64,000 nt of DNA from an uncultured delta proteobacterium (GTDB lineage Bacteria; Desulfobacterota; Desulfobacteria; Desulfobacterales; UBA2156), in the NCBI GenBank assembly GCA_963736855.1, contig CAVTQK010000021.1, positions 256,001 through 320,000 of the forward strand, read 5' to 3'. Position 1 is the first letter of the stretch, and each line of letters begins with the position of its first letter. The translations under genes were made by a program, and so were the position numbers. Below the pieces are notes generated by a model. It made no database searches. It saw nothing but the letters and a program-made list of their open reading frames with translations, and had not been told where the DNA came from. Positions 23,129 to 59,569 of this stretch are shown here, piece by piece.

Positions 23129-24178
23129 ATGAAAAAGGAAATATGGATTGAGGATAAAATGATAGGTGATGATTCGGACTGTTACGTTGTAGCCGAAATA
23201 GGTCATAATCATCAGGGTAGTATTGAAAAAGCGAAAGACTTATTTCGCGTGGCTAAAGAATGCGGGGCCGATGCCGTCAAGCTCCAAAAACGCGACAACC
23301 GGTCTCTTTTTACAAAAACGCTCTATGATACACCTTATGACAATGAAAACAGTTTCGGGTTGACTTATGGGGCTCATCGGGAAGCGTTGGAATTCGGAAG
23401 ATCACAATACCTTGAGTTGCAAGAATATGCCAAAAAAATAGATATAACAATGTTTGCCACCCCCTTTGATTTTAAAAGCGCCGATTTCCTGGCAGATTTA
23501 GAAATGCCTGCATTTAAAATAGCCTCGGGCGATCTAAAAAATACGCCTCTTTTAAAACATGTGGCTAAATTTGGAAAACCGATTATTCTGAGCACTGGGG
23601 GCGGAAATATGGATGATATTCAAAGGGCATTTAACACGGTTATGCCCATTAACGACCAGCTTATTTTTCTTCAATGCACGGCCGCTTATCCTGCAGACGC
23701 GGAATTGCTGAATCTCAAAGTGATTACGGCGTTGAAAAATGAATTCCCAGACAATATCGTAGGGTTATCGGATCATGAAAATGGAATTGCGATGGCGGTT
23801 GCAGCATATGTTTTGGGCGCGAGAGTCATAGAAAAGCACTTTACTCTAAACCACACCTGGAAAGGAACCGATCATGTTTTTTCGCTCGAACCTATCGGAA
23901 TGCGAAAACTGGTTCGCGATTTGCGTCGGGCTCGCCTGGCAATGGGAGATGGAGTCAAGAGGCCGTTGGACTGCGAAAGAAAACCACTTTTAAAAATGTC
24001 AAAAAAAATCGTTGCAGCAAAGAATTTAAAAAAAGGGACCGTTTTAGAGGAAAGCCTTCTTGCTCTTAAATCGCCCGGTGACGGGCTTGAGCCGTATCAA
24101 ATGGATCATATTTTAGGAAAACGTCTTTTAATTGATGTCGCGGAAGATGGGAATATCGGTTTTGAAATGCTGGGATAA
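23129..24178 (+). CDS. NeuB-family ulosonic acid synthase #1 (with C-terminal SAF domain)
   Basis: AEIGHNHQG, AVKLQKR, KIASGD, LSTGG, SDHENG, IEKHFTL, KSPGDGL. Confidence 0.9.
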   Translation: MKKEIWIEDKMIGDDSDCYVVAEIGHNHQGSIEKAKDLFRVAKECGADAVKLQKRDNRSLFTKTLYDTPYDNENSFGLTYGAHREALEFGRSQYLELQEYAKKIDITMFATPFDFKSADFLADLEMPAFKIASGDLKNTPLLKHVAKFGKPIILSTGGGNMDDIQRAFNTVMPINDQLIFLQCTAAYPADAELLNLKVITALKNEFPDNIVGLSDHENGIAMAVAAYVLGARVIEKHFTLNHTWKGTDHVFSLEPIGMRKLVRDLRRARLAMGDGVKRPLDCERKPLLKMSKKIVAAKNLKKGTVLEESLLALKSPGDGLEPYQMDHILGKRLLIDVAEDGNIGFEMLG

Positions 24179-24190
24179 GGTTGCTGGAGA

Positions 24191-25014
24191 ATGAAAATTA
24201 CTGATATTTTTAACTTAAAAGGAAAAATTGCAGTTATAACCGGAGGAATGGGTCAGCTCGGAAAAATTTATGCGGAAGCGTTTGTTAAAAATGGAGCAAA
24301 AGTCGCGATTTTAGACCAGGACAAAGAGCCGAAGGAAAAAAGCGATACTGTCAACTCAGGATTTGCCGAAGGAAACATCAAAGCCTATCAAGTGGATATC
24401 ACAAAAAAAAATGAAGTAACAACCGCACTCCAACAAGTTGTTTCTGATTTAGGCGTTCCTCATGTGTTAATTAATAATGCGGCAATTGATTCTCCGCCTA
24501 GTTCCCCTGCTTCCGAAGTCGGGCCGTTTGAAACATATCCGGAAACCTCTTTTGATAAAATCATGGAAGTAAATGTTAAGGGAACATTTATTTGCTGCCA
24601 AGTTATAGGAGCAATAATGGCAGAGCATCAGAGAGGAGCCATCATTAATGTATCGTCTATTTACGGATTGCTTTCTCCGTGCCAGGACATATATGAATTT
24701 CGACGCAAAAAAGGAGAACCTTTTTTTAAACCCGTTGCATATTCCGTATCGAAATCGGCCATTTTTAACTTGACTCGATATCTAGCAACCTATTGGGCAA
24801 AAAAGAATGTCCGGGTCAATACGATTACTTTTGCCGGGGTTTTCAATAACCAAGACTAAAGAATTTATCAGCGCTTACTGTTCAAAGATATCCCATCGGA
24901 AGGATGGCGAATGCTGAGGAATTCATCGGACCCATTTTGTTTCTTGCCTCTGATGCTTCTTCTTATATGACCGGGTCAAACCTAATTGTAGATGGGGGAT
25001 GGACGGCATGGTAA
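24191..25014 (+). CDS. SDR oxidoreductase (frameshifted near 24856 and 24890)
   Basis: [17 protein letters not shown]. The C-terminus PIGRMA...[17 protein letters not shown] continues in another frame to TAA 25014. Confidence 0.85.
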
Positions 25015-26500
25015 AAGTCGAGAAACTTAAAGCCGACCTGTTTCCAAATGAAATTCACAATTGGATAGGGGGAAAGCAGGTTTTTGCCGATTCTGGAGAA
25101 TTTTTCAACAAAATGAATCCGGCAGATGGAGAATTGATTTGCCGAGTTGCAAGGTCAAAAGATATTGATGTCAAACTTGCTGTTCGTCATGCTAAAGAGG
25201 CTCAAGTGTCTTGGTCGGATACTCCACCCGTAAAGCGAGGGATGATTTTGCATGAAATTGTAAGAACGATGCAGGATAAGAAATATGATATTGCGTCTAT
25301 TGTTGCCTTGGAAACCGGAAAATCGAGGGGCGATGCTTTAGGAGAAACGGAAGGGGCTATTGAACTCGGCTTATTTTATTCAAGTGAAGGACAACGGCTT
25401 TACGGCCGGACAACAACCAGTCGAGTATCAAACCGATATGCAATGACCATCCGTCAACCTGTCGGAGTTGCAGGACTAATAGTTGCAGCTAACACGCCGA
25501 TTGCGAATATTGCTTGGAAAGTTTTCCCTGCCCTTATTTGCGGAAATAGCGCAGTCTTAAAACCTGCCGAGGATAGCCCTATTACCGCATGGTTTTTCGG
25601 CAAAATCTCTCACGATTCGGGAATCCCAAAAGGAGTTCTTAATATTATTCAAGGACTTGGTAATGAATGCGGCGCTTCCTTGGTCGAAAATGCTGATGTC
25701 GGTGTCATCAGTTTTACAGGATCAACAAAGATTGGAATCCACATTCTGGCAACGGCAGGTAAACGACTTGCAAAAGTTTCATTGGAGCTGGGAGGTAAGA
25801 ATCCCTTGATCGTATGCGATGACGCCGATCTTGAAAATGCCGCAAAATGGACGATTCTTTCAGCTTTCAGCAACGCAGGACAGCGATGTGCAGCGGCAAG
25901 CAGAATCATTATTTTCGATGCCGTATATGATCGTTTCCGTGAAATGCTTATAGAAAAAACAAAACAATTAAATGTTGGACCAAATGATGACGATGATCTT
26001 GGACCGGTAATCAGCGAAAAGCAGCTTCATCGGATGTTGTCTGCTGTTGAAAATGCGCGAAAGAAAAACGCTACCATTTTAACAGGGGGACAAAGGCTTT
26101 TAGATGGTAAACAGCCGAAAGGGCTTTTTCATGGCTCCAACACTTATCGAAAATGTTACACCTGAAGATGATATTTCAATTACGGAATTATTTGGACCCA
26201 TTGCATGTCTTTATCGGGTGAAAAATTTTCACGAAGCATTGGCTCTATCCAACAATTCTCCATACGGATTGACTTCCAGTATACATACAAAAAGCTTTGA
26301 CCGGGCAATTCTATTCACTCAAAAAGTGAAAACAGGAACGGTTACCGTCAATGCGGGAACATTTGGAAGCGAACCGCATATGCCATTTGGAGGGCTAGGA
26401 CAGCTCTGGAAACGGGTCCCGAGAACCGGGGACTGAAGCTTTGGATGTATATTCCGAAATCAAGAATGTTTATATGAATGTCGATCCTGAAAAAATATAA
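25008..26500 (+). CDS. aldehyde dehydrogenase family protein (frameshifted twice near the 3' end)
   Basis: [28 protein letters not shown]; continues [16 protein letters not shown]. Confidence 0.9.
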
Positions 26501-26541
26501 CATATCTTATTCAAGTATCGATAGATAGGGGAGTGATTTGA

Positions 26542-28122
26542 ATGCAAGTCATATTGACTGGGTATGATTCTTTTTGGAAAGCGATTGCAGAATACTTGAT
26601 TGAAAACAATATCAATATCCGGTACATCATAACCCTCCTAATTGCTCTAAATGATGCATCGACATCACAGCCAAGCTTTTAATAACACGGAATTTTTAAA
26701 TCTGGAAAAATTTGTATGCCCGGAACAAATCACAAAACTAAATTTAAATAGCAGATATTGTCTTTCATCGGACCTTTTAAATGATTTCTGTGAATCTGAA
26801 AATATTTTTTTGTCCATTTCGGATCGTTTGACATTTTTTCCATTAAGTGTTCAGAAAAAGAAAAGAGCTGTTTCAGGATCTTTTGTTGTATTGGTATTCA
26901 TTTATTATACGAATCGAAAATTACACATATAATACTTCAGGGATGCGCCTCACATGGCCTGGGATAATGTACTATATGATTTGGCAAAGTATTTGGGAAT
27001 AAAAACTCTATTTGTTGAAAAAACGATGATCATCGACAGGGTCTTGGTGATGAAGGATTATCGCAAGGTCAATAAAGTACCTTCGGATTATTTGACTCAA
27101 ATTGAAACTGATGATATTGCAGATATCGTAGGTGAAAATCTGATTCAAGAAGTTTTTAAAACAAGCGGATGGATAAATTTGCAGATAAAAAAAATATGAA
27201 GGTATTAGCGACACATAACAATTATTCTTAATATTAAAAAAAATCTCGAAAAGTTAGTTGAAGCATTTCGTTCTGAGAAAGTTTTTTATTTTCCTTTTAA
27301 AACTTTTTAATTTTTTAAAAATAAAAATATTCGATAGTATTGACAAGCATATCTAAATTATTCAAAAAACGCTTTTTGAGTGCGCTATTTTTTAATGGAC
27401 AGTACGATGGATAACAACTTGGTTGTTTTCGTTGCCTTTTAAAAGAAAAATCAAAAAATTATATAAATCCTATTCAAATCCTGCAGTGCAAGTAAATTTT
27501 AATCAAAAATATATCTTTTTTCCATTACATTATCAGCCAGAAAAAAATACATCCCCATTAGGAGGAGTTTTTGAGAATCAACTCCTTGCCGTTAAAATAT
27601 TGTCCGAAGCCGTTCCTGAAAATTGGATAATTTATGTAAAGGAACATCCACGCCAATTTTCTTATGTAATGCGTCAAAGACATTATCGTGATATCGATTA
27701 TTATGAAAAATTATTGGGGATTCCAAAAGTGCAAACTAGTAAATATTCAGGAAAATGCAGATGAGCTGATTGAAAAAGCAATTTGTACCGTTACAGTTAC
27801 CGGAAGCAGTGGATGGAAAAGTCTTAAAAAAGGAAAAGCATGTATCGCTTTTGGAAATCCTTGGTATGCACCGTGTAACAGTTGCTTTTTAGTAAGATCG
27901 TTGGAGGACTGCAAAAAAGCAATTGAAAATATTTTGATATTGGATGAGTCAGATGTAAAAAGGGATCTTTTAAAATTTATTGCATATTATAAGGATCGAT
28001 TTATAATTTCAAGCACTAGCCATAATTTCGCAAAAAAATCAAAAATTCCTTATGAAATCCTGGTAGAAAATCTTGGCGAAAGATTGAAAGAAGCTGTTGT
28101 TGGGAGTTTGAAGGCAAACTGA
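26542..28122 (+). CDS. KpsS/LipB-like capsule biosynthesis protein, copy 1 (multiple frameshifts)
   Basis: Fragments are collinear with the intact paralog at 43083: FLSISDRL, PHMAWDN, PLHYQPEKNTSPLGG, KEHPRQF, GSSGW. Confidence 0.75.
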
Positions 28123-28180
28123 ACTTCATAACAATTATAGAAGGTATTATTTTATTCAAACAGGTTGATGACAGTGATGG

Positions 28181-29302
28181 GTGATGATGAAACTTTTATA
28201 TCGTATCAAGGAGTTCCTCAATCACCGAAGATTTCATTGCCAGGTTGTCGCCTATCAAGTGGAGAGATTGCTTCCCGAACTGTCCATCGAAGACTTGGGT
28301 AATCCGATAAAAGATAAAAGGAATCGGCGGGTTTATTTCACTCGAAGCCGGTACGGAAACGTCATCGTCAAAATTTATCAACAAAACCGCATGAACCACG
28401 CCCTCAATTACAGTCTGGCGTATCAAGCCTTCAAGCAAACAGGTGTTCGTATTCCCAGGCTTTTATTTCAAGACTTATCTATAGAGAGTAGTCAAAAATA
28501 CGGATTTTCATGTATGGTTCAGGAGTATGTGCAAGGAGAGCACTTTGATTTTGCGAGGCATTTATCGAGTTTGCCCAAACTGGCACAAATTCTGTCATCC
28601 CTTCATGGCCACACCTCGCCGCAGTTTGGTTTTTTAGCTCAACCAGCCACCGGCTTTTTCTGGCAAAACTTCCTATTTGATATCTTAAAAAGAAAGATCA
28701 AGATTGTATCAGCTTTACCTTTTCCTGAGCCGGAAAGAAGAAAGGTCATCAATTACTTTAGGGCCTGGAGCAATCGACTGGGTCAGGGAATCGAGGGTTG
28801 GAGCTTGCTACACTGGGACCTGACAAATAAAAATTGTCTGATAGATGACGAAGGCCAACCGGTGTTGATCGACTTCGATAATTCGACGAGAGCCCTTTAC
28901 GGCCTTGAACTGATCCGCATTCCCTTCTGGTTCCTTTTGCCTAAGAAAGAAATTCTGGATTTGTCCTCACCGGAAGCCTTTTGGGACAATTGTGGGACGC
29001 TTTTGGAGCCTTTTCTTGAACTTTACTTCAAAGGACTGCCCCTAGCATTCCGGCGGGACTGGGAGATTAACCGTGACTGCTACTTGGTTTGGGGTATGCT
29101 CATTCATACAGCCTCGCTCACCAAATCAATTATTAATCCAAGAAGTATCCAGATGGCAAAGACCGATGGATATGATTCAAATCGCAGAGAAGTTTTTAAG
29201 GGTCGCTTGAATCAAACTCAATATGACAAGGTTGACCTCCAAGAAGTCAAAGCTCGCGCAGTCAAACAGTGGCAAAACTTGATTCGGGTGATAGATGGTT
29301 GA
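28181..29302 (+). CDS. APH/choline-kinase-like phosphotransferase
   Basis: VIVK, LHWDLTNKN (HxDxxxxN) and LIDFD motifs. Confidence 0.75.
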   Translation: MMMKLLYRIKEFLNHRRFHCQVVAYQVERLLPELSIEDLGNPIKDKRNRRVYFTRSRYGNVIVKIYQQNRMNHALNYSLAYQAFKQTGVRIPRLLFQDLSIESSQKYGFSCMVQEYVQGEHFDFARHLSSLPKLAQILSSLHGHTSPQFGFLAQPATGFFWQNFLFDILKRKIKIVSALPFPEPERRKVINYFRAWSNRLGQGIEGWSLLHWDLTNKNCLIDDEGQPVLIDFDNSTRALYGLELIRIPFWFLLPKKEILDLSSPEAFWDNCGTLLEPFLELYFKGLPLAFRRDWEINRDCYLVWGMLIHTASLTKSIINPRSIQMAKTDGYDSNRREVFKGRLNQTQYDKVDLQEVKARAVKQWQNLIRVIDG

Positions 29303-29403
29303 TATCCCTTCTGAAGAAAAATTAATTGTTGTTAAAGACGTTTGACAAATCATGCACACAATTTCAGACATGCCCTTCTTGAGAATGTAGCAATTCCGTA
29401 GAT

Positions 29404-30522
29404 ATGATTTCAAAAAACAAAAAAATGTGGATAATACGTCGATATTATTCAATTATTCGCAGATTTGCGACAATGGCTTTAACCGAATTAGCTTATATTA
29501 AAAAACTTAATTCAAAATCAAAATTTAAATATTATTTAGATATCGATTTTCCATTAGAATTTAATTGTTATGTCACCTCAGAAAAAGGAATATTTAAAAT
29601 TGAGAATGGAAAACTTGAAAAAGTTTTAAATCTATGGGTGTTTGGGATAGCTTTAGACAAGCATAATGCATTTATTTCTTGTGCAAGCGATATCTCCCAA
29701 TCCTATTCTTATATCTTATCTTTAGATGTAAAAGCCTTAACTACACAACATATAAAGCTCAATATGAAAGAGCTATATCGAATTCCACTATCTTCTAAGC
29801 GCCAAAGAATCCATCAAATATGCTTAAATGAAAACTCAATCTGGGCAGCAAATACTGCACGAAACACCTTAATGGAAATAAACAGAGATAATGGCTGCAT
29901 AATTAAAGAGATCGCTCCATTTAAGGATTTGTTTGGTAAGCCGATTCTTCATGATCATAATCATATAAATAGCATTTGGCATACGGGCGAGGCTTTGCTG
30001 TTTGTTGCATTTAGAATTGGCGAGCGATCAATGATCGGTGTTGTAGGAGAAGATGAGATTAAAGGATTTGCATATAGAAATTATGGTGCTCATGATATAG
30101 CAATACGGAAAAAAGATTTTTATTTTTCTGACACTTTAGGCAAAGATAAACCTGATGAGGGAGGCTGCTTAATAATAAATGGATATCCGATTGACGAAAA
30201 TTTTTTTCAAAAGCCGCTAGGATGTATCGTTAGAGGAATTGCTGGAAATAATAATCAATTGGTAATTGGTCATTCTCACAAGGGTAAGCGAACCACAAGA
30301 TTTGACGGAAAAGGTGCGCTTCTTTTTGCACAAAATAACAAAATCGTACGAAAAATTGAAATGCCTTTTTCTCAAGTTTACGATATCATCCGTTCTGACG
30401 GAAAAAGGTTCAACGAAGAGCCTGAAGCTGTTTCATTCTCAGAAGTGTATGAATTGTTGAAAAAATATTTAGGCAAACCTATATATTCCGAAAAAGTAAA
30501 GGATTGTATTATCAAAGAATGA
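29404..30522 (+). CDS. hypothetical beta-propeller-like protein
   Basis: 372 aa open frame with repeated His-initiated strands RIHQI, HINSI and AHDI. Confidence 0.65.
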   Translation: MISKNKKMWIIRRYYSIIRRFATMALTELAYIKKLNSKSKFKYYLDIDFPLEFNCYVTSEKGIFKIENGKLEKVLNLWVFGIALDKHNAFISCASDISQSYSYILSLDVKALTTQHIKLNMKELYRIPLSSKRQRIHQICLNENSIWAANTARNTLMEINRDNGCIIKEIAPFKDLFGKPILHDHNHINSIWHTGEALLFVAFRIGERSMIGVVGEDEIKGFAYRNYGAHDIAIRKKDFYFSDTLGKDKPDEGGCLIINGYPIDENFFQKPLGCIVRGIAGNNNQLVIGHSHKGKRTTRFDGKGALLFAQNNKIVRKIEMPFSQVYDIIRSDGKRFNEEPEAVSFSEVYELLKKYLGKPIYSEKVKDCIIKE

Positions 30523-30529
30523 GCAGATA

Positions 30530-30955
30530 TGATGTAGGTTGAAAATAATGGACACCAAAGTTTACAATGATTGATAGATGGAGGTGTCAGGATGGAAAAG
30601 GTACCATACAGCAAATACAGCAAAGAGTTTCGCTTGGAGGCGGTTCGTCTTGTTACCGAAGGGGGTCTATCGGTTGGAGAGGGAGCCATGCGCCTTTCCC
30701 TTCCGAAATCGACTTTGGAGAACTGGGTTCGTGCTTTCAAGGCCGGGAAGCTGGAGAGGATCGGTTCGACGCACATGCCTTTGACTGAGGTGGAGGTTGA
30801 GCTGGCCCGGGTGAAGCGGGAACTGGTCCTTGTGAAGATGGAGCGAGACATACTAAAAAAAGCCGCCGCGTACTTTGCCAAGGAGTCGCTACACGGCACG
30901 CGGTGAGGGAGCAGATGCGACTCGACTATCCACTTGGGGTACTGTGTCGGGTATT
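30530..30955 (+). mobile_element. IS3-family element, left part only (truncated by IS5)
   Basis: TG-starting end TGATGTAGGTTGAAAATAATGGACACC; orfA; A6G frameshift motif at about 30855-30862; orfB start (..YPLGVLCRVL) cut at 30955. Confidence 0.85.
30592..30906 (+). CDS. IS3-family transposase OrfA
   Basis: YSKEFRLEAVRLV HTH and ERDILKKAAAYFAKES; GGAGG RBS. Confidence 0.9.
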   Translation: MEKVPYSKYSKEFRLEAVRLVTEGGLSVGEGAMRLSLPKSTLENWVRAFKAGKLERIGSTHMPLTEVEVELARVKRELVLVKMERDILKKAAAYFAKESLHGTR

Positions 30956-32385
30956 GAGACGTTTGAAAAACTCTTCAGATTTCGGGTTTTAGATTTTTGG
31001 GAGAATTTTCAGAAAAGTTTAGGGTTTATGGTATCGAGTTTGATTCATTTTTTGTTCCAACGCAACGGAGAATCGGGCTCTATTCCGTCTCGATTTTCAT
31101 CATTTTCATGCCGAGTTCCTTCAATTTTACTCTTTGGGCGCACCTCCTCGTTTTATATGAACGCCAGTTTTAAAATTCTCAATCCTCTTTTTATATTGAA
31201 CGCCGCCTGTCGGCACCAGCAATCGAACTTGTTTTTGGGGATGTTGGGAAACCGAGCCCTGATAGGCATGATCGTGAAGATGACTCAACCCGAAATATTG
31301 TTCGACCATGTATCGGATCTTCGAGATCTTTTTGTTTCGTTCAATTTCATAAGGAGTTAACTTGGCCGTCGTTGTATCTTTTCTCATGATGCCGTCTTCG
31401 ATTTTATTTTCGGCAAGGAAAGCTCCGGTTTGGCTCTCCGAAATATCCTTTATCGGCATATGCCTTTTTAATGGGTTGTTTCGTATGACGGGAAAAGACC
31501 GTGCAATACGGAAAGTAGTTGGTATCGCTTTCGGAAGCCGGAGTGAGGGTTGTGGCCAGGATAAAGCCGTGGTTCACATCCACCGAGGCATGTTCTTTCA
31601 ACCCATAATGGGGGTTATTTTCATCCTTGGCATTCCAGTCTGATTCCAGGTCTCGGGTATACTTTTTGGGTTTGCCGTTTTTATCGAGTTTTCCTTCCGG
31701 GGTTTGGGGTTTATCTCTCAGTTCCTTGATTTTGTCGTTACTGATGGGGCGGCTTACCGATTGGACCAGTCGGGCATCGACGGCGATGCCTTCGTTGATG
31801 GTCAATCCCTGTCGTTCGAACTGTCTGAGGATTTCGGAGTTGATCTGATCCATGGCATTTTTAGAAAGCCGGCTTCTGAATCGGGAAAAGGTGGAATGAT
31901 CCGGAGAGGGTTTATCCAAGGGAAGCCCCAGGAAGCGTTTGAAGGAAAACCGGTCGTTGATCTGGCTTTCCAGTTCAGGGTCGGATTGAATTCTAAACCA
32001 TTTTTGGAGCATCAGGCATTTATACAGCAACAACGGCGGATAGGCATCGGCGCCTTCGCCGCTGGTACCGACGGTATAATGACTCATCAAAACGGATTCG
32101 ATTCGGGGCCAGTTGATGGATTTATTCGATCTTTTCCAGGGTCTTGAGGCTTCGGTTGTGCTCCAGGGTCTCTTTCATGGCCAGATCGGCGAAGGTCAAG
32201 GACTCGTTCAGTCTTTTGAATCCCATGGTCATCCTCCTGTTGGTTTTTTACAGAAGGATACCCTGATAAAATGATAAATGTCAATATAAAAAAGATATAA
32301 ATAAATATTTATAGAGTAATCTATTGAGTCTGGAAAAGGAAGTCATGAAACAAGGTGGGAAAATCAGAGGTTATGCAAAGGCCTC
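30956..32385 (-). mobile_element. IS5-family insertion sequence, about 1430 bp
   Basis: Imperfect TIRs GAGACGTTTGAAAAAC and (reverse complement) GAGGCCTTTGCATAAC; contains a transposase gene. Confidence 0.88.
31153..32226 (-). pseudogene. IS5-family transposase (frameshifted)
   Basis: MGFKRLNESLTFAD...; LQKWF..SDPELE, PDHSTFSRFR, VDAR, YGLKEH, YADKGY, RYMVEQYFG, spread over several frames. Confidence 0.85.
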
Positions 32386-32450
32386 ATATCACATCTCGGG
32401 GGACGCTACTTTTATTTCCAGAAATAAGCTCTCAATTGAGGATGTAACCA

Positions 32451-33230
32451 ATGAATGTTATTAAACACTTTGTGGAAGCGACTATCAAGGCATTTGGGCG
32501 CGGCAGGATTAACAAAGTCCTGAACTGCGCAGATATCAAATTTGAAATCGCTAAGAGTGGCGCAACGTACTATGATTACTATTGGCATAAAGCGAATAAG
32601 AAAATTGATTTGAGAACAATAGGTGACTTTTGGGAAGTAGCAACAAGAGTTATTAAAGAAAAAAAAACCTTTCTCTACTATGATCGGCTTTTTACGTTAT
32701 GGCAGGGTATTTTGAGCTTAAATTCTTCTGATTGTTCAATAGCAGAGATAGGAACTTATAAGGGGGGGTCAGCTAGATTCATCATAGAAACACTTAATAA
32801 AAATAAATATAAAAACAAATTTTTTGTGTTTGATACTTTTAAAGGCCATTCCGTAGTTGATGAACGTGTTGATGGAAGGCACAAAATCGGCAACTTTGGT
32901 GACACATCTTATGAGGAAGTGAAAACCTATCTCAATGCACCCGATGTAGTGATATATGAAGGTAATTTTTTAGATACCTCTCAGTTTATTGATCGTATCT
33001 TTAACTTTGGAATGGTCCATATCGATGTCGATGTTTACCCTGTGACAAAGTTTTGCTTAGAATTTTTTGAAAAACATACCATCCCTGGAAGTCTAATAAT
33101 CATAGATGATTACGGAAACAATAATTGTAAAGGGCTCAAAAAGGCTGTTGATGAATACATTTGCACCCATTCTTATTTCAAAATGTTTTACTTATTAACC
33201 GGACAAGCGCTATTGATAAAATATTGTTAA
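32451..33230 (+). CDS. TylF/MycF/NovP-family O-methyltransferase, copy 1
   Basis: AEIGTYKGGS, FDTFKG, VHIDVDVY, IIDDYG...GLKKAVDEY. Confidence 0.85.
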   Translation: MNVIKHFVEATIKAFGRGRINKVLNCADIKFEIAKSGATYYDYYWHKANKKIDLRTIGDFWEVATRVIKEKKTFLYYDRLFTLWQGILSLNSSDCSIAEIGTYKGGSARFIIETLNKNKYKNKFFVFDTFKGHSVVDERVDGRHKIGNFGDTSYEEVKTYLNAPDVVIYEGNFLDTSQFIDRIFNFGMVHIDVDVYPVTKFCLEFFEKHTIPGSLIIIDDYGNNNCKGLKKAVDEYICTHSYFKMFYLLTGQALLIKYC

Positions 33231-33474
33231 TAAGCATATGAATGACTGGTAATCTTGATTCTTCAACTTGTAGAATTTAGACCTTGAACACTTTTAGAGT
33301 AATCAAAAGCTTCACCATCAACATTGTCATACGGTTTACGATCAATTTTATTTAATTTGTTCTCGATCCCGACCGTTAGGCGAGCCTATCCCATTGAAGT
33401 TGGTTGAAAAGATAAAATAGGCTAATTCTATAAAAGTTTTTCCAAGGCATTGATTTATAATTTAGAAATTATTT

Positions 33475-34240
33475 TTGAGAATCGATATCAAGACAAAAAC
33501 TATCATAGCGCTAATACCTGCAAGATCGGGATCAAAACGTTTAAAAGAAAAGAATATCAAGCTATTAAGCGGTCATCCGTTAATGAGTTATACAATTTCT
33601 GCTGCCCTGAAAAGCAAAATATTTAATTCGGTAATCGTTTCAACCGACTCGAAAATTATACTCAAAGATAGCAAAACATTATGGCGCAGAGGTGCCAATT
33701 TTAAGACCGGTCAGAAATATCGGGAGATACATCACCGGATATTGAATGGGTGGAATACACTTTGAGGAAATCTCAAAGATAACGGCAAAGAATATGACTG
33801 TTTTTCTATTTTACGTCCAACTAATCCTTTTCGTATGCCGGAAACCATTCAAAGAGCATGGAACTCATTTCTTAAACGAAAAAGGAATCGATTCCCTCAG
33901 AGCCGTTGAAAAATGCAAACAACATCCGGGGAAAATGTGGGTAATTAGAAATGATAGGATGCTACCCCTTCTCCCTCTCAGCCCTGCAGAGCAGCCATGG
34001 CACAGCAGTCAGTATCAATCCCTTCCGGAAGTATTGTACAAAATGCAAGTTTAGAAATTTCTTGGACTCGAAATGTATTCGAAGGATCGAACAATAGCAG
34101 GAACGATTATGATGCCGTTTTACACCGCTGGTTATGAAGGATTTGATATCAACTACCCGTATGATTGGAAAATTGCTGAAGAACTTATTTCCACCGGTCA
34201 AGCAATATTACCGTCTATAAACGAACTGCCGTATATTTGA
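33475..34240 (+). CDS. NeuA-family CMP-ulosonate synthetase #1 (frameshifted)
   Basis: ALIPARSGSKR..KN, VSTDS, LRPTNPFR, EGFDINYPYDW across frames. Confidence 0.85.
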
Positions 34241-34260
34241 AATAATATGGGGTCTTGATC

Positions 34261-36183
34261 ATGATTGATTTAAAACTCATCCCTTTATCGGAATTTAATA
34301 GGATAAACAATTCAACGCGAAAAGATAAATATGACAAATTGCATTTGATTGCTGATATGTGTCGAGCAAATACTTTAGTTGCCGTGAAAAAAGCCGGTTC
34401 AGGCCACTTAGGGATCCAGCTTCAGCTCGATCGATATTGTTGTCTGGCTTTATTATTGCAAAATGAACACGATCGAAATAGGTCTGGATAATCCCGATAG
34501 AGATATTTATTTTTCTTCGAAAGGACATGACGCGCCTGGCCTTTACAGCGTTTTGTATTCCTTGGGGATTTTGGATAAGCAAAAGTTGCTCAAACTCAGA
34601 AGAATCAGCGGATTGGACGGTCATCCCCATATCAGCATTCCGGGAATCGAGGCAAATTCCGGATCTTTGGGAATGGGAATTTCCAAGGCAAAAGGAATCG
34701 CCTTTGCAAAGAAAATCAAAGGGGGAGAATGGATGTGTTTCGTGATGACCGGAGACGGTGAATTCCAGGAAGGGCAAATTTATGAGGCGCTGCAAACTGC
34801 CCCACATCAAAAGATCACAAATCTTGTTGTCATCATGGATCACAATAAAATACAGACAGATAAACCCGTTGAAAATGTAATTAGCCTCGGTCCATTGAAG
34901 AAAAAATACGCTCTTTTGGATGGCATTGCGAACGATGTAACGGTCATGACTTTAGAAGCATCGAAGATGCTTTTCATAAGTTGGATAAGATTGCTTCAAG
35001 ACCAAAGGTGCTCGTAGCCGATACGATCAAAGGGAGAGGCGTTTATTTCATGGAACATCCATACGACCTGGAAAAGACCGGCGGTTTTTACCGCTGGCAT
35101 TCGGGAGCTCCGGATGATGAATCTTTTAAAAAAGCCTTCGATGAACTGATTGATCGAATCAGCCTTCGTTGTCAGAAATTGAAATTGGAACCCATCTCGT
35201 TTGAAACGATTCCTGTTGAAAAGAAGAAAAAAAGCGGTGTCACTCTCAGAATATGTTGCGGATGCTTTCGGAGAAGCTCTTGTTGATATCGCAGAAGCCC
35301 GAAAGGATGTTATCGTACTGGATTCGGATTTGGCTGCAGATTGCCGTCTTCGCGCTTTTGAAGCCAAATACCCGGAGCGATTTATTGAGAATGGGATTGC
35401 CGAACAGGATATGGTTTCAATGGCAGGGGGGATTGCATCTCAGGGCTTATTACCTGTTGTCAATACGTTTGGAGCCTTTTTATCTTCCGAGCAAACGAGC
35501 AAATCTACAATAATGCCAGCGAATTGAACAAAAATCATCTATGTTTGCCACTATGCGGGGTTGATTCCGGCAGGACCCGGATTATCCCATCAGTCGATTA
35601 GAGATATATCGCTGGTTGGAGCATTGCCGAATATTACATTTTGCAGCCCTGTAACGCGGTAGAGACTCGTTTACTTTTTGAATATTGCATAAACGAAGCC
35701 GATCAAAATTGCATGATCAGACTTAATATCGGTCCATCTCCGGGTAAAATCGAATTGCCGTCTGGCTACCGGATTGAGGAAGGTCGCGGATCGGTATTAC
35801 ACAACGGAAAAGATGCCGTCCTCTTCGCGTACGGGCCTGTAATGTTAAACGAAGCCTTGAAAGCGGCGTCAATACTGAAAAATGAAGATTTTGGAATTCG
35901 GGTTATTAATATGCCGTGGCTGAACCGAATTGATGATCTCTGGATTGCAGATGCTATATCTAAAGTCAAAAATATTTTCGTTATAGAGGATCACAGCCCA
36001 ACTGGAGCGTTAGGAGATTACCTATTAAATACATTGGAATCAAGGAGCTTGCTAAAAGGCAGACGATTTCATAAATTCTCCGTTGAGGGATATCCTGCAT
36101 GGGGTACGCCTCAAGAAGTACTTCGGTATCATCGGCTAGATGCGATATCATTAGTAAAAAGAGTTATCACGGAAATTAGATAG
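34261..36183 (+). CDS. single-chain transketolase/DXS-like ThDP enzyme (frameshifted)
   Basis: AGSGHLG, SKGHDAP, LDGHP, GSLGMG, GDGEFQEG...DHN (ThDP motif), TIKGRG, GIAEQDM, SHQS, EDH. Confidence 0.88.
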
Positions 36184-36195
36184 GAAATTTCTGTT

Positions 36196-37560
36196 ATGAT
36201 TCCTAACGTTCTATTTCTTCCAAGTAACAATTATAATTTTATTGAGATGCACAATTGGGGAAGTACCTTTTAAGTCGACACCTTGCTTATCCAGTCATGC
36301 TTTTAACGAACAGTTCGATATCTAAATACAAAAATCAGTTTGATAATAGTGGAATTCAATATATCAATCCAAATAATAAATTATTGGAAAAAATACAGAG
36401 GAAAGTATTAAAAGCTTTTGATGAAATCTTTAAAAATAAATTGAGTAATATTAAAAAGGAATTGTTTTCCATCGTACTGAAAAGGCGTGAGCATGATATC
36501 ATCGGGTTTATTGAAAAAATATGACCCCAGGTCAGTGGTTGTAAAGGGCGATCGACATTGGAATAATGGTTGGGAACCAGCCATGATAAGAACATGCAAT
36601 GATCAGAGGAATCCCGTCCATTATTATTCCTATGGCACTTTCAAATATCGAATCGCTGGCTAAGAAGAAGGCCTAATCAAAAATTAAATGCTAAGTTTTA
36701 TCCATATATAAAACAATATTATCCGAAACAATGCTTATGGGATAGCAGAACCAGCAGTTATTATCTGTATAGAGAGCCTTCGTTGATTTTAGCTCTGGCA
36801 AAAAGAGATATGTTGCCGGATAATCCATGGATTATGGGAGGAGGAAAAAGTACTTTCGTTTTGGTTGAAGGAGAAGATATCAAGCGGCGCTATATCGAGT
36901 GGGGATGTAATAAAGATAAAATCATTGTGACCGGTCGTGCCGCGCATGATTATTTGTTTGAAGGATTCAAACAAAAGCAAAATATTAGGGATAGGCTTTT
37001 TAAGAAATATCATTTTAATCAAGATGTTAAACTTATTCTTGTCGCTCTACCGCAGTATGCAGAAGAAGGTTTGTTGAGTTGGGAAAAACATTTGAACGAA
37101 ATCAATTTTATAGGAAGTATTTATCAGCAATTAAATGCAAATTGTCTTATATCCCTACACCCAAGAATGGAACGGAATAACTATTTATTTTTAGAGAAAG
37201 AATATTCATTGGTAATTGCTGAAGAACCTTTATCGGATATTTTACCGGCTGCTGATATTTTTACAGCAACTTATTCATCTACGGTTCCTTGGGCTGTTTT
37301 ATGTCAAATACCTACAGTTGTTTTCGATTTTCTGGACTTCGGGTATGAGTCATTTAATTATCCGGGGACTATCATAGTTAAAGATAAGGAAAAATATAAT
37401 GTCGGAATTAGAAAAATTATTGAATAACGATTATTACTATTCTTTTATGAAAAAAGAACAAATAGATGCATCTCAAAATATATCCACCTTTGATGGAAAA
37501 TGTATGGAAAGAATTGCAGATATTGTTATAAATACCGGAAACTATTTGAAAGGTAATTAA
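36196..37560 (+). CDS. GT-B-like protein with HP and SS/T motifs, candidate ulosonate transferase, copy 1 (frameshifted)
   Basis: NPWIMGGGKS, SLHPRM, YSSTVPWAV, FDGKC; paralog of the gene at 45748. Confidence 0.6.
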
Positions 37561-37947: not shown

Positions 37948-38974
37948 GTGCAAAAAAACGAATATGAGTCCATGGCAATACCTGTTGAATTAGACAAAAA
38001 GATAAGCGAATTTGTTGAAAACAGCGAGGGGATAGTGTCAAATAAAATCCAGGCGATATCCCAAGCGTGGCAGATATATGAAAAATTATTTCTACAAGAA
38101 AAAAATCCTGGGACCATAAAGATCGGCAACAAATTTGTCGGACATAATCAGCCAATTTTCGTGACAGCTGAAATAGGAATAAACCACAACGGAAGTTTGG
38201 ATATTTGTAAAAGATTGATTGATTTGGCCTTTGAAGTTGGTTGTGACGCTGTAAAATTTCAAAAACGAACTATTGATATAATTTATACAAAAGAGGAATT
38301 GGAAAAATTTCGAGAGAGCCCATTCGGACAAACAAACGGGGACTTAAAACGAAAATTGGAGTTTGGAGAAAAAGAATATTCCGAGATTGATCAATATTGC
38401 AAAAAAAAAGGAATTATTTGGTATGCATCTCCTTGGGACATACCAAGTGTTGAATTTTTAGAAAAATTTAATGTTCCTTGCCATAAAATTGCTTCAGCTT
38501 GCATAACAGATAAAGAGCTATTAATAAAAATAAAAGAAACAAAAAAGCCGGTCATATTATCTACCGGAATGAGCACTCTCAAACAGATAAACAAAGCGGT
38601 AAAATTATTAGGAGAAGAAAATTTGATAATTTTGCACTGCACTTCCACATATCCAACCGCAGAAAGTGAACATAACCTCAACACTTTAAAAACATTAAGA
38701 AAATATTTTAATTGTCCAATTGGTTATAGCGGCCATGAAACGGGAATTTGGCCGACAATAATTGCAACAGCGTTGGGCGCATGTGTTTTAGAAAGGCATA
38801 TAACTTTAGATAGAACGATGTTTGGAAGCGATCAAGCCGCTAAACCTTGAAAGAAAAGGGATTGAGACAATATGTAAAATTGCTAAAATTACAAATGTAT
38901 ATCTAGGCAATGGGAAAAAAATAGTTTATGATTCAGAAAAACAAATTCTTAAAAAATTAAGAAGAGTTGAATAA
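37948..38974 (+). CDS. NeuB-family synthase #2, no SAF domain, N-terminal extension of about 55 aa (frameshift near 38845)
   Basis: AEIGINHNGS, VKFQKRT, KIASAC, LSTGMS, HCTSTYP, YSGHE, ERHITLDR. GTG start preceded by AGGTGA. Confidence 0.88.
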
Positions 38975-38994
38975 TCTTTAAAATAGGTGGTTGT

Positions 38995-39623
38995 ATGAAT
39001 AAAATTGTATCTATAATACCAGCAAGAGGAGGAAGTAAAAGAATTCCAAAAAAAAACCTTATAAAAATCAATGGTAAACCTTTAATTTATTATATGATTA
39101 AAGCTTCTTTGGAATCCAAAGTAGATGAAACATGGGTTAGTTCGGAAGATGATGAAATATTACGAGTAGCAAAAAAATATGGCGCTAAAATAATTAAAAG
39201 ACCAGAAGAGTTGGCAACGGATACATCATCAAGCGAATCTGTTTTATTACATTTTGCAGATAATTGTTCTTTTGATATACTTGTATTTTTAGATACCTAC
39301 TTCTCCATTGACTACACCAGAAGACATCAATAAATCCATAGAGCTAATGAAATATTATGACTCTGTCGACAGTATCCGAACTGACACAATTTATATGGTT
39401 TGAAAATAATCCATCCTATGATTTAAATAATAGACAAAGAACGCAAGATTGCAAAAAGACTTATATTGAAACTGGGGCAATTTTTATAACCAATAGAGAA
39501 AACCTTTTAAAAACAAAAAATAGGCTTAGCGGAAAAATTGGTTTTTGTATAGTACCCAAAATTCGTTCATTTGATATAGATTCATATGAAGATCTTGAAT
39601 TAATTAAGAGGTTGATAATATGA
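38995..39623 (+). CDS. NeuA-family CMP-ulosonate synthetase #2 (frameshifted)
   Basis: IIPARGGSKRIPKKN, PTSPL, ETGAIF, SFDIDSYED. Confidence 0.88.
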
Positions 39624-40347
39624 ATAAGGAAATATTATTTGGGAAGAATTGCTTTATAACTGGGGCAAAAGGAGGATTAGGAAAAGAAATTGCATTCGAA
39701 ATGGCTAAATGTGGGTGTAATTTATTTTTAACAGGCAGAAATACATCAAACTTGGAAATGCTGAAAAGCGAACTTAAAAAAATAAATAAAAATATAAAAA
39801 TATTTTTCGAAAAATGTGACTTAAATAATTTTGATGAAATTAAACGGATTATTAGTAAAGCTAAAAACTAGTTTAGAAATGTTGACATTTTAATTAACTG
39901 TGCTGGAGTTTTTCCGGTTAAAAAATTCATTGATTCTGAGATCGAAGATTTTGATAAATGTTTTAATATAAATATAAAAGCCCCATTTATATTATGTAAA
40001 GAATTTAGCAAAGAGATGGTTAAAAATAAATGGGGAAGAATTGTCAATGTAGGATCTTCGTCGGCTTATAGTGGTTTCAGGGAAACATCAATATACTGTG
40101 CCTCCAAACATGCCATTTTAGGACTGTCAAGAGCAATTTATAATGAGCTTAAAGATTACAATGTCAGAACATTTTGCATTTCACCAGGTTCTATAAAAAC
40201 AGAAATGGGGAAACAGGTTAAAAACCAGAAATTTGATACCTTTTATCCAACCAAAAGAAATTGCTAAATACATTTCATTTGTAATCTCGTTTGATGGATA
40301 CATGATTTCAGAAGAGGTAAGACTTAATAGGATGTTTATACAATGAC
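39620..40347 (+). CDS. SDR oxidoreductase (in-frame stop at 39869 and a frameshift)
   Basis: TGAKGGLG, INCAG, YCASKH, SPGSIKTEM. Confidence 0.8.
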
Positions 40348-41119
40348 TTATTTGGAAACACTGTTTTCATTAAAAGGAAAAGTTGCATTGGTCACTGGTG
40401 CAGCAAGAGGCAATGGAAAAGCGATTGCAGAATCTTTGTTGAGAGCAGGCGCTAAAGTATTACTATTCGATGTGTTAGAGAAAGAACTTAATGAAACTGC
40501 AGATCATTTTAAAAGCGAATATTTAGACGCTATACCTTACGTGTGTGATCTTTCTAATTTTGGTAAAATTGATGAAATGATAATTTTTATTAAAAATATA
40601 ACTGAAAAAGTTGATATTCTCATAAATAACGCAGGGGTTAGTTTTAGCAATCCAGTATTTGATTACCCTGATGAATTCTGGGAAAAAACGTACAAAGTCA
40701 ATGTAAATGCTCCCTTCGAATTATCAAAAAAAATAGGGAAGCTTATGAGGAAGTATAAATCCGGAGTGATTATAAACATAACAAGCTTAAATGCCGAATT
40801 GGCATTTGCTGACAACCCGGCATATGTTTCTGCTAAAGGTGCTTTAAAGCAGTTATCAAAATCTTTGGCTATGGATTTAGGAAAATATGGGATTAGAGTG
40901 AATAATGTCGGCCCAGGTTATTTCAAAACTCAGTATGAACAAAAAAAAGTTGGGATGATACTGTTTTAAATAAGCAAAGAAAAAACCGAACTATTTTAGG
41001 AAGGTGGGGCTTCCCTGAAGATTTAGCAGGAATTATTGTTTTTTTATTTCAAATTATCTTCATATATAACCGGCCAAGACATTTATGTCGATGGTGGTTG
41101 GCTAATAAAAGGATTATAA
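40343..41119 (+). CDS. SDR oxidoreductase (frameshifted near the 3' end)
   Basis: TGAARGNG, INNAG, YVSAKG, GPGYF; continues LGRWG...TGQDIYVDGGWL. Confidence 0.85.
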
Positions 41120-41130
41120 AAATACATTAA

Positions 41131-41817
41131 ATGGTTTTTAATAAAGAAACAAGCGACAAAGAAAAATTGTACAATAAATTTTATAACGGAAATGAGTATG
41201 AATATTGGGAACACGCGCCAGGCAAAAATGTGATTATAGTAGCTGTAGCTGATTTTTTAAAGAAAGGACTGTTACCAAAATCAGCAAAGATCGTTGATGT
41301 AGGGTGCGGAACCGGTTTTTTCATGGATAGGATTTATAAGGAAGTAAATAACAATGTTGAATTGTCGGGCATTGATATATCATCTGAGGCGATAGCTATT
41401 GGCAAAAAAAAATACCCATATCTTGCAAAACAGCTATTTAATGGTGATGGATGTGAAACCGGATTCAATAGAAATTATTTTGACCTTCTTATTTGTTATG
41501 GGTCATATGAACATTTTAAATCACCATATTTGGGATTAAAAGAAGCGGCACGAATTTTAAAAAAGGGAGGATATATCATGATAATGGTTCCCACATTAGG
41601 TATTGATCGCACTGATAGAAAAGATGAGGGGTGGTATGAGAAAAGGAGAAGTTGTGAACAACCACGAACTTGGCAAATGCAGTGGAATTACTACAGGAAA
41701 ACGTGGGAAGATTTGTTAAAAAAGGCATCTTTTAAATTGTATCCTATTGATATCCCTATTAATTATGGCGAATTAAACGGGCGTTTTTTATTTCGGAAGA
41801 AAAGGATCAAAGCCTGA
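41131..41817 (+). CDS. class I SAM-dependent methyltransferase
   Basis: VDVGCGTG, GIDIS, EH...EAARILKKGG. Confidence 0.85.
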   Translation: MVFNKETSDKEKLYNKFYNGNEYEYWEHAPGKNVIIVAVADFLKKGLLPKSAKIVDVGCGTGFFMDRIYKEVNNNVELSGIDISSEAIAIGKKKYPYLAKQLFNGDGCETGFNRNYFDLLICYGSYEHFKSPYLGLKEAARILKKGGYIMIMVPTLGIDRTDRKDEGWYEKRRSCEQPRTWQMQWNYYRKTWEDLLKKASFKLYPIDIPINYGELNGRFLFRKKRIKA

Positions 41818-44645: not shown

Positions 44646-44677
44646 TCCAGACTCTTAATCAATAGTTATCATACTTA

Positions 44678-45460: not shown

Positions 45461-45490
45461 ATGTTTTTATAACAGCCACATATTTTAATA

Positions 45491-45746
45491 ATGAAGAAAG
45501 CGAGTATCACAAAGAAATCAATCATAGCTTTGATACCCGCCAGGTCGTAGGGATCACGGTCCATTCGGTGGTCTTGGAGATTGTCTTTTAAATATAATGT
45601 GCTCTAATCAGGTTTTAAAAAATAGGCGTCTTTTTAAGTTTGCCGTTGAGGGCTATCCGGCATGGGGGACTCCTTCCGAAGTGCTTCGGTTTAATAAATT
45701 GGATGCAAAATCGATCGCAAAGAAGATTGTTAAGTTAATAAATTAA
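45491..45746 (+). pseudogene. fused remnant: NeuA 5' end joined to transketolase 3' end
   Basis: MKKASITKKSIIALIPARS* then DHGPFGGLGDCLLN...FKFAVEGYPAWGTPSEVLRFNKLDA..*, matching the start of 33475 and the end of 36183. Confidence 0.85.
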
Positions 45747-45747
45747 A

Positions 45748-48333: not shown

Positions 48334-48366
48334 TTGAACAAATTAAGGTCGAACGGATGACTTAAA

Positions 48367-48951: not shown

Positions 48952-48972
48952 TTAAAGAAAAGTAAATTTCTA

Positions 48973-49980: not shown

Positions 49981-49997
49981 AGAACTCCTAAATCCAA

Positions 49998-51172: not shown

Positions 51173-51209
51173 GTTTAAAAAACTGATTGATAAAATTAGG
51201 AAGCACGTA

Positions 51210-52271: not shown

Positions 52272-52304
52272 AGATTTGAAACATCCTAATTCAAACCAAG
52301 CCGC

Positions 52305-53168: not shown

Positions 53169-53176
53169 TCTCATTA

Positions 53177-53851: not shown

Positions 53852-53852
53852 C

Positions 53853-55067: not shown

Positions 55068-55082
55068 AAAAAAGTTTAACAA

Positions 55083-58410: not shown

Positions 58411-58440
58411 ATTCGAAACGTTGTATTAATTCAGTGAAAT

Positions 58441-59548: not shown

Positions 59549-59569
59549 ACAGAAATACCGAGAAATAAG

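Follow-up and report, generated by a model that had tools for sequence, protein, structure and literature searches.

How a bacterium would use a sialic acid synthase of the NeuB family that is encoded together with a transketolase (TK), a short-chain dehydrogenase (SDR) and an aldehyde dehydrogenase (ALDH) is the question raised by a module at positions 23129-37560 of the 64,000-nucleotide stretch analysed here (the window). Our leading answer is a tentative one, to which we give slightly less than an even chance: a Kdn-type C9 sugar would be oxidised at C8, the TK would remove C8-C9 and the ALDH would oxidise the C7 aldehyde, yielding an L-arabino heptulosaric acid and not D-lyxo Dha. To our knowledge, known ulosonic-acid pathways alter substituents or stereocentres and keep the chain that the synthase made. 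If the proposal is true, a thiamine diphosphate (ThDP) enzyme that resizes a sugar after the synthase would be new chemistry, and the route would lead to a class of sugars that current screens, with their C8/C9 markers, could miss.

Gene content of the module

Profile searches of the window placed all the named genes on the + strand in the order given by an earlier sequence-only reading, with the ALDH gene overlapping the end of the SDR gene by 7 bases, and found no NeuC, aminotransferase or dehydratase within 23129-37560, as that reading had also stated. NeuC-family genes at about 50174-51120 and 60620-61771 lie outside the module and serve other NeuB genes. Two candidate transferases are present. 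The KpsS-like protein (about 26542-28122) is a candidate ulosonyl transferase, possibly of PF05159, the family of the KpsS/KpsC beta-Kdo transferases, its fragment scoring 19.6 bits against a cut-off of 20, and an intact paralogue (43083-44645) reaching 25 bits and falling in Atlas clusters that are 69-80% PF05159. The GT-B protein (about 36196-37555, end approximate) is in pieces, matches PF04464 weakly, carries its HP motif at 37158 and has a paralogue at 45748-47126. An APH-family phosphotransferase, the kinase (28184-29302; PF01636), and a TylF-family O-methyltransferase (32451-33230), a recurrent accessory, complete the peripheral genes already named. The sequence-only reading had passed over a + strand gene for a 372-aa protein with no Pfam family (29404-30522) and two insertion-sequence remnants (30571-32230; an HTH_Tnp_1 frame on the + strand and a DUF772/DDE transposase on the - strand) that split the module; pieces matching the remnant stretch occur in many public contigs.

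A conserved but flexible cassette

The NeuB-SDR-ALDH-NeuA-TK cassette is widespread, being common in uncultured bacteria of soil, sediment and sludge, and apparently undescribed so far. The co-occurrence that the sequence-only reading called for is found in other genomes as a conserved unit, and since the same gene order recurs in Chloroflexota, Gemmatimonadota and Desulfobacterota, the grouping is not due to chance. In the 52 related loci that extend 7 kb or more beyond NeuB on its downstream side, NeuA is present in all 52, ALDH in 48, TK in 44 and SDR in 32; for 25 metagenome loci centred on TK and reaching 6.5 kb or more upstream, the counts are 25 for NeuA-family genes, 23 each for NeuB and ALDH, and 12 for SDR. 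NeuC appears in 7 of 80 loci, each time beside a second NeuB or NeuA. The KpsS-like protein, kinase and GT-B protein, which had been read as fixed parts, had no match in 80 and 81 related loci (APH kinase 0/80 and 0/81); these three and the 372-aa gene are local add-ons. A TylF or FkbM gene occurs in 17 of the 52 long loci by a two-query screen, and a HAD phosphatase in 21 of the 52 by a rough screen as well as in a Streptomyces cluster. There is no HAD gene inside the window's module; a KdsC-type gene, 34% identical, lies on another contig of this genome (C24).

NeuB-SDR-NeuA is kept without TK in near-complete genomes. ALDH with intact catalytic residues persists without TK in some genomes, including one that is 100% complete (G173); conversely, a complete chromosome (L076/G016) and every phage copy have TK but no ALDH. 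The full route is therefore not obligatory.

The synthase and the cytidylyltransferase

The intact cassette-core NeuB (23129-24178; PF03102 and the SAF domain PF08666) is, judged by alignment, animal-NANS-like and of the aldose-phosphate type. It scores 307.8 bits against TIGR03569 (classical bacterial NeuB/LegI; cut-off 399.65) and 252.6 bits against TIGR03586 (PseI; cut-off 340.25), below both thresholds. PMC8208679 gives Glu134 as catalytic and Arg314 as lying in the SAF domain (N. meningitidis numbering); the cassette enzyme aligns Asp and Ser at these positions, and E134D, the loss of R314, a loop and a linker are marks common to named arthropod NANS, to which it is 38-40% identical. In a FastTree phylogeny, it falls in an 87-row clade with support 100, apart from the classical bacterial Neu/Leg/Pse types, in keeping with the sequence-only reading. 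That clade joins the NANS branch with support of 63, in a tree without a characterised bacterial Kdn synthase, so the suggested sister relation to animal NANS is weakly supported. A SAF-less Kdn-type NeuB at 37948 is distinct from the cassette enzyme. The cassette-specific NeuA-family cytidylyltransferase (about 33475-34240, start approximate), core in the glycan and phage copies, matches an intact orthologue at 71%.

An SDR predicted to act at C8

The second core gene (24191-25014) encodes an SDR of the ElaC/PtmA type. Its best solved structure is 6UH2, which was the search model used for ElaC, and its spacing S155-Y157-V160-I166-Y167...P180-Y183-K187 matches ElaC S145-Y147-V150-I156-Y157...P165-Y168-K172 as given in PMC13656337. 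The S-x-Y motif and the long V...P substrate loop before YxxxK are present, the loop being 5 residues longer than that of ElaC. ElaC M164, described in PMC13656337 as lining the 7-N-acetyl pocket, corresponds to an invariant Lys in cassette SDRs. NCBIfam PRK09186 is still the best family model, at 165.9 bits below its cut-off of 255. The cassette SDR, which carries the ElaC motif, is a predicted C8 oxidoreductase of CMP-nonulosonates. Counting against its proposed role as an oxidase, ElaC is described in PMC13656337 as a reductase, and its function there is based on docking and deletions.

In favour of an SDR step, each of the 21 Anaerolineales genomes tested whose cassette lacks the SDR has one of the same family at another place. 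This co-occurrence is weak, since that SDR belongs to a separate NeuA-HAD/NeuB2-type module and 79 of 121 genomes of the order have it anyway.

A remodelled transketolase and its dependent dehydrogenase

The single-chain TK-like enzyme (34261-36183) retains the ThDP motif, catalytic Glu and active-site His, is about 30% identical to human TKT and falls below every NCBIfam transketolase cut-off. In human TKT numbering, taken from an alignment to 4kxu, all 129 cassette TKs have Asp at S345, Pro at D424 and Tyr, Leu or Phe at H416, and Arg stands at the R318 and R474 positions in 0 of 129; H258 and E366 are kept in every one, as are H37, H77 and H110 in the 121 sequences covering them. Ordinary TKs within the same sequence sets retain these residues. 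The sugar-phosphate site (two Arg, His and Ser) and the hydroxyl-binding Asp are also replaced in 120 of 120 actinomycete-type TKs. D424 is the residue that we take to bind the substrate 2-OH. The Arg/Arg/His set is credited with phosphate binding in PMC3352088. With both the phosphate site and the hydroxyl-binding Asp lost, the enzyme is unlikely to supply a tetrose phosphate. The subfamily has probably been remodelled to shorten a sugar tail: by our own reasoning, an 8-oxo-Kdn tail would offer the D-threo C7/C6 geometry of TK donors with no phosphate, and would put the ring oxygen at the spot that a D424-bound hydroxyl would occupy.

The accessory ALDH (25008-26500), with its active-site Asn, Glu and Cys kept, depends on TK: once TK has gone, it decays or its evolution speeds up. 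One TK-less clade (support 100) has it lost, displaced or diverging at 1.8 times the core-gene rate; the corresponding figure for relatives that bear TK is 0.99, in a comparison of 10 and 15 pairs that are not independent. Streptomyces copies have a class III aminotransferase, an RmlD-like reductase and an RraA aldolase in its place; all of these act on carbonyls, which we count in favour of tail cutting.

A proposed route

Firstly, NeuB would condense PEP with an aldohexose 6-phosphate, of which mannose 6-phosphate is the likeliest, the hexose being a guess from NANS/Kdn precedent and the use of a phosphate being suggested by sequence and the linked phosphatase. Secondly, a KdsC-type HAD phosphatase, inside many copies and elsewhere in this genome, would take off the 9-phosphate, after which NeuA, whose family is clear, would make the CMP-glycoside, probably in this order. 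The SDR with NAD+ may then run the ElaC reaction in reverse, oxidising C8 to leave a CH(OH)-CO-CH2OH tail, and the active site of the TK suggests that it could use this ketol as donor and cut C7-C8, the C2 unit departing as glycolaldehyde or on a small acceptor. Splitting into two aldehydes needs a pull, which counts against the route. Finally, ALDH would turn the C7 aldehyde into a carboxylate; with mannose 6-phosphate as the start, the result would be 3-deoxy-L-arabino-hept-2-ulosaric acid. The methyltransferase may O-methylate this product, and variable transferases could attach it to a surface glycan that the ABC systems nearby export. Where a copy lacks ALDH or TK, the pathway would halt at an earlier step or have another ending.

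Alternative readings

Chain extension or branching, in which the SDR makes a tail carbonyl, the TK adds a two-carbon ketol to give a C11 or branched ulosonic acid, and the ALDH caps an aldehyde, either making a second product or closing the pathway, is unlikely but has substance. The loss of D424 is compatible with an unusual acceptor aldehyde as well, phage copies have TK and no ALDH, ElaC-type SDRs are described as reducing the penultimate ketone that such an extension would leave, and a CMP-linked higher-carbon ulosonic acid is seen in Magnetospirillum (bioRxiv 10.64898/2026.04.20.719630). That sugar, however, is di-N-acetylated and the main text of the preprint mentions no transketolase; the donor would have to use the same site, where Asp at S345 should repel abundant phosphorylated donors; and in most copies the acceptor aldehyde would be consumed by the ALDH encoded beside TK.

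Irrespective of what the cassette does elsewhere, the copy in this window could be a decaying pseudogene block, which we consider improbable. Frame-aware alignment to intact homologues revealed 26 single-base indels (SDR 2, ALDH 2, KpsS-like 10, NeuA 6, TK 6), the GT-B gene is likewise fragmented, two insertion-sequence remnants lie inside the module, a partial duplicate lies downstream, and 5 other genomes of the genus yielded no NeuB of the cassette type. Yet in the same alignment all five genes are free of in-frame stops, the low-GC island also contains broken genes of the unrelated Leg pathway, and a relative's short-read contig (depth about 4) has a compensating indel at the NeuA breaks at 33771, 34034 and 34087; the indels are probably read errors.

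The same tail cut could have another ending, though we think this distinctly improbable, with ALDH only clearing glycolaldehyde and the C7 aldehyde being reduced or left, so that the product is either 3-deoxy-L-arabino-heptulosonic acid, with a single carboxyl, or a reactive sugar aldehyde. Phages and L076 do without ALDH, its dependence on TK fits either aldehyde, and the structure nearest to it belongs to a broad ALDH from Thermus; against this, it is a subfamily of its own, strongly conserved, whose many invariant residues in the channel seem more than the disposal of a by-product would demand, and its best family models, though below cut-off, are 2-oxo-acid semialdehyde dehydrogenases.

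As far as is known, the products of NeuB enzymes have the C4 configuration of Neu, Leg and Pse, which in sugar nomenclature is opposite to that of D-lyxo Dha. The route first proposed for this DNA, in which TK gives a tetrose phosphate, NeuB extends it to C7, and SDR and ALDH oxidise the terminal CH2OH to yield Dha or a stereoisomer, is very improbable. In its favour, NeuB is of the aldose-phosphate type, ALDH persists in some TK-less genomes where housekeeping erythrose 4-phosphate could serve, and at the time of PMC3355719 no activated form of Dha had been identified. Against it, binding or releasing a sugar phosphate should be difficult for the TK, which is also missing from near-complete genomes that keep NeuB-SDR-NeuA; the motif of the SDR indicates C8 as its target; constraint on ALDH loosens once TK is gone; and the facial selectivity of NeuB would give the wrong C4. 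Passages of PMC12531865 gave nothing on the C4 configuration of NeuB products. What survives of the earlier proposal of a non-canonical dicarboxylic ulosonate is the second carboxyl and the seven-carbon product, still our best guess; Dha itself is not supported.

Relation to known systems

The tail-cutting route shares a NANS-hallmark synthase, a HAD phosphatase, a CMP-transferase and the absence of NeuC with the animal NANS route and with the Kdn-9-phosphate route of Bacteroides thetaiotaomicron and Prymnesium parvum, as set out in PMC6200933; in contrast to both, the cassette adds SDR, remodelled TK and ALDH, and its synthase forms its own clade. C8 epimerisation of CMP-nonulosonates in Acinetobacter baumannii (ElaA/ElaC, EpaA/EpaB, AciE) employs the same SDR subfamily and substrate loop, with an 8-keto intermediate according to PMC13656337 and PMC12053666. 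The cassette, however, has no partner Gfo/Idh/MocA or aldo-keto oxidoreductase, and its sugar would bear a 9-OH and no N-acyl group, its 8-keto form being predicted to be cut and not reduced. Human TKT and the split Carboxydothermus TK have the same three-domain ThDP fold, cofactor site and ketol-binding His/Glu, whereas the sugar-phosphate residues and hydroxyl-binding Asp are replaced in every cassette member. Like Dha, the predicted product would be a C7 2-keto-3-deoxy diacid of the same mass, but its predicted L-arabino configuration mirrors that of the DAH skeleton. The analysis found nothing that ties the cassette to a Dha producer.

Actinomycete and phage copies

Beyond bacterial glycan loci, NeuB-SDR-TK is present, with NeuA absent, in actinomycete NRPS clusters, and tailed phages carry NeuB-SDR-NeuA-TK-methyltransferase among their head genes, between terminase and portal, together with a CstII-like transferase. 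It is possible, though we lean against it, that the TK subfamily is a C-C lyase trimming CMP-Kdn-type sugars within a portable NeuB-SDR-TK unit that has three outlets: a C7 diacid on bacterial glycans, a polyhydroxy amino-acid block in actinomycete peptide clusters, and phage-virion glycosylation through the CstII-like transferase. As cultured, tractable actinomycetes carry the cassette, its chemistry is open to direct testing; the phage copies, for their part, suggest that virions might be glycosylated in a sialic-acid-like manner. The conserved phage protein beside the cassette has CstII as its closest fold (Foldseek E 1.8e-4, TM about 0.4); this likeness concerns the phage copies alone, and the protein shares 15-19% identity with CstII and GT42 sialyltransferases and has no Pfam match. 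Phage TK members are without the C-terminal domain, and an FkbM methyltransferase follows the cassette in the phage copies.

Conservation of the cassette

The cassette at window positions 23129 to 37560, comprising genes for NeuB, an SDR, an aldehyde dehydrogenase (ALDH), NeuA and a transketolase-like ThDP enzyme (TK), is genuine and departs in a new way from the CMP-ulosonate pathway of Kdn type; its product is a predicted one. The sequence-only reading had taken these genes for one pathway, and they do co-occur in other genomes of three phyla: among the best 80 of 181 GTDB loci with a relative of this NeuB (61–69% identity), the order NeuB-(SDR)-ALDH-NeuA-TK was seen in Chloroflexota, Gemmatimonadota and Desulfobacterota. 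Fifty-two of these 80 loci had at least 7 kb of downstream sequence, and carried NeuA (52/52), ALDH (48/52), TK (44/52) and SDR (32/52); all four partners were present in 23, only SDR was missing from 20, only TK from five, both ALDH and TK from three, and only ALDH from one. Metagenomic loci centred on TK gave NeuB in 23, ALDH in 23 and SDR in 12 of the 25 (from 80) with enough upstream DNA. Distribution of this NeuB type is patchy: within the class it occurs in 8 of 201 genomes, and within the genus in none of five others. Neither a NeuB-transketolase-ALDH cassette nor a gene-defined pathway to a heptulosaric acid was found in the literature searched, which takes in few subscription journals, and an earlier description may exist.

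Genes around this core vary locally. The kinase, 372-aa, KpsS-like and GT-B genes of the window were considered as cassette parts and rejected, with no matches in related NeuB or TK loci, where other transferase-like genes occupy their place. Profiles of nine neighbouring protein clusters reached only E 0.002–0.004 at best against window ORFs. The common downstream protein among them (cluster 9) has a GT-B fold and best matches UDP-GlcNAc 2-epimerases at 10–13% identity, a match that does not settle its function. Next to NeuB, several copies from Chloroflexota and Desulfobacterales have an inserted 394-aa gene (604–1785 in locus L033) whose product is a GHL10-like barrel. A search for a Gfo/Idh partner found none, and carries no weight (five genomes, one query, no positive control).

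State of the window copy

Every gene named from the sequence alone was recovered, in the order given and on the + strand, with a 7-base overlap between the SDR and ALDH genes. The host genome (3.9 Mb, 100% complete) carries the cassette within a glycan island of low GC (30–44%), and belongs to the same order as genomes with loci labelled Desulfobacterales. Intact ORFs in the module are confined to four genes (NeuB, kinase, methyltransferase and the unnamed 372-aa gene); frame-aware alignment placed 26 single-base indels and no in-frame stops across the SDR, ALDH, KpsS-like, NeuA and TK genes. Long-ORF coverage is 27–52% in this part of the contig vs ~75% for large contigs, and at three of the NeuA breaks a relative's short-read contig has a compensating indel (among the matches listed; depth ~4). 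The breaks more probably reflect read errors, in an island left unpolished, than decay of this copy, which is less likely but has in its favour the two IS remnants that interrupt the module. An old duplicate of the KpsS-like/TylF/GT-B block lies at 43083–47126 (72.5% DNA identity over 1.4 kb); of TK it keeps no more than the final 60 codons, at 45549–45734.

Active sites of the cassette enzymes

The cassette NeuB scores under the cut-offs of both the NeuB and PseI families, and has Asp at the position of E134 and no Arg at that of R314 (N. meningitidis numbering). These two changes are marks of eukaryotic NANS (PMC8208679), and the substrate loop and linker are also common to a named arthropod NANS. 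A FastTree phylogeny of 127 rows set it outside the LegI and PseI clades, within an 87-row clade also separate from Kdn-type NeuB and linked to the NANS branch with weak support (63). Residues 155–158 (window gene 23129–24178) read STGG, in place of the STGM of other NeuB types aligned, in almost every one of the 81 cassette NeuBs as well as in a Streptomyces NeuB, which may mark altered substrate use. A HAD phosphatase occurs in 21 of the 52 long loci (rough screen).

The best structural match of the SDR is 6UH2, the search model used for ElaC, an SDR acting at C8 of CMP-nonulosonates and proposed as an 8-keto-CMP-legionaminate reductase (PMC13656337). Residue spacing agrees with ElaC, and the Met of the ElaC 7-N-acetyl pocket is replaced by an invariant Lys.

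The closest match of TK is human TKT, and its catalytic Glu and His residues are retained throughout the 129 cassette TKs. Elsewhere in the active site (human TKT numbering) Asp replaces S345, Pro replaces D424 and Tyr, Leu or Phe replaces H416, with Arg absent at both 318 and 474 (an Arg lies one position past 318 in 56/129); the window's own TK has the same replacements, and the lost Asp (D424) is a hydroxyl-binding residue of transketolase. The equivalent Arg/Arg/His set forms the phosphate site (PMC3352088). With phosphate-site residues replaced in 129/129, TK appears unable to hold a sugar phosphate and would be a poor source of aldose phosphate for NeuB, the role that it had been assigned from sequence.

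Loss patterns and the proposed pathway

No TK orthologue was found elsewhere in 19/19 genomes with a TK-less locus (mostly incomplete MAGs; one further genome served as positive control), and ALDH was not found in 9/10 genomes whose locus is without it. Among near-complete genomes, G197 has both ALDH and TK, G173 (source of locus L048) ALDH only, and G195 and G198 (source of L071) neither, while the complete chromosome of L076 has TK only; every combination is thereby represented. A 27-row tree of NeuB plus NeuA contains a TK-less clade of eight (support 100) in which ALDH was lost three times and displaced once; where it is retained in this clade, its divergence relative to core genes is 1.8x, vs 0.99 among relatives that have TK (from 10 and 15 pairs that are not independent). 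Loss and faster divergence of ALDH without TK suggest that ALDH acts on what TK makes. A same-family SDR lies elsewhere in 21/21 SDR-less Anaerolineales genomes tested, which is weak support because 79/121 genomes of the order have one; its neighbours in the six Anaerolineales regions read are a fused NeuA-HAD gene and a NeuB of the Kdn type. This order-wide module (L124–L129: Gfo/Idh ... SDR, NeuA-HAD fusion, Kdn-type NeuB) has the look of a Kdn pathway with C8 epimerisation, so far undescribed.

By Fischer projections, a nonulosonate that bears an 8-oxo group and a free 9-OH is a phosphate-free ketol with the D-threo geometry of transketolase donors, its ring oxygen sitting where the lost Asp would bind. 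This fit, and a TK lacking its phosphate site, favour a route in which the sugar tail is cut. NeuB would condense a hexose 6-phosphate with PEP into an ulosonate phosphate, to be dephosphorylated and CMP-activated; C8 of the CMP-sugar would then be oxidised, the C7–C8 bond cleaved and C7 oxidised, giving 3-deoxy-L-arabino-heptulosaric acid from mannose 6-phosphate. The whole sequence, every step of it inferred, is offered tentatively, at somewhat less than even confidence; the TK step is probably new ThDP chemistry.

Chain extension or branching driven by TK is an unlikely alternative. A by-product role for ALDH is more doubtful still. The order of steps in the sequence-only reading, with TK first supplying tetrose phosphate, is very improbable for an enzyme of this active site. 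The product that it named as an example, 3-deoxy-lyxo-heptulosaric acid (Dha), is not supported either: Dha is D-lyxo with a Kdo-type C4, to our knowledge no NeuB product has a Kdo-type C4, and the favoured product is L-arabino.

Actinomycete and phage versions

On a replicon of Streptomyces sp. NBC_01237 (NZ_CP108509.1; L136, 6544–17404), NeuB (49–50% to the window NeuB), SDR and TK are consecutive inside an NRPS cluster, which also holds HmaS-, Hmo- and aminotransferase-like genes, an RraA aldolase, an RmlD-like reductase, a HAD phosphatase and a class III aminotransferase. NeuA and ALDH had no match within 26 kb, and no known compound matched the cluster in a literature search. Enzymes of these TK and NeuB types occur widely among cultured actinomycetes and may make a new amino-acid building block. 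The Asp/Pro signature is kept in 120/120 nearest TKs, the named ones being actinomycetes, and 43 of these 120 share the size of their longest contig with one of the 120 nearest NeuBs (15/43 under 25 kb), which points to linkage, with one cluster read.

Tailed phages have a version too: sixteen IMG/VR contigs (L222–L237; 15 found via TK, one via NeuB) carry the cassette, as a complete NeuB-SDR-NeuA-TK-FkbM set in 10/16 and with TK missing in one; ALDH was seen in 0/16. Portal homologues occur in 15/16, and in L227 (529–15415) the cassette lies between terminase and portal genes (PHROG). Phage TK lacks the C-terminal domain and keeps the Asp/Pro signature. A conserved phage protein past the head genes has a fold closest to the sialyltransferase CstII (pLDDT 74, E 1.8e-4), and virion glycosylation is possible. 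Actinomycete and phage copies, with their differing partners, suggest that NeuB-SDR-TK is a portable unit and that the finishing enzymes vary.

Other glycan modules in the window

Four NeuB systems share the island. A second NeuC-less module (37948–41817) comprises a SAF-less Kdn-type NeuB, NeuA, a methyltransferase and two SDRs of other subfamilies. The legionaminic-acid-type gene set at 47179–56887, several of its genes frameshifted, includes an aminotransferase, an acetyltransferase, a LegI-like NeuB, a NeuC-family hydrolase, a CBS nucleotidyltransferase, a HisF/HisH pair, NeuA and a dehydratase. At 56884–64000 lie a B12 radical SAM enzyme, a sulfotransferase, an amidotransferase resembling asparagine synthase, and a fourth NeuB accompanied by NeuC and NeuA; the sulfotransferase region, with an APS kinase at 11392, suggests that the island's glycans are sulfated. 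A 41-base inverted repeat (59508–59548) stands directly upstream of the fourth NeuB.
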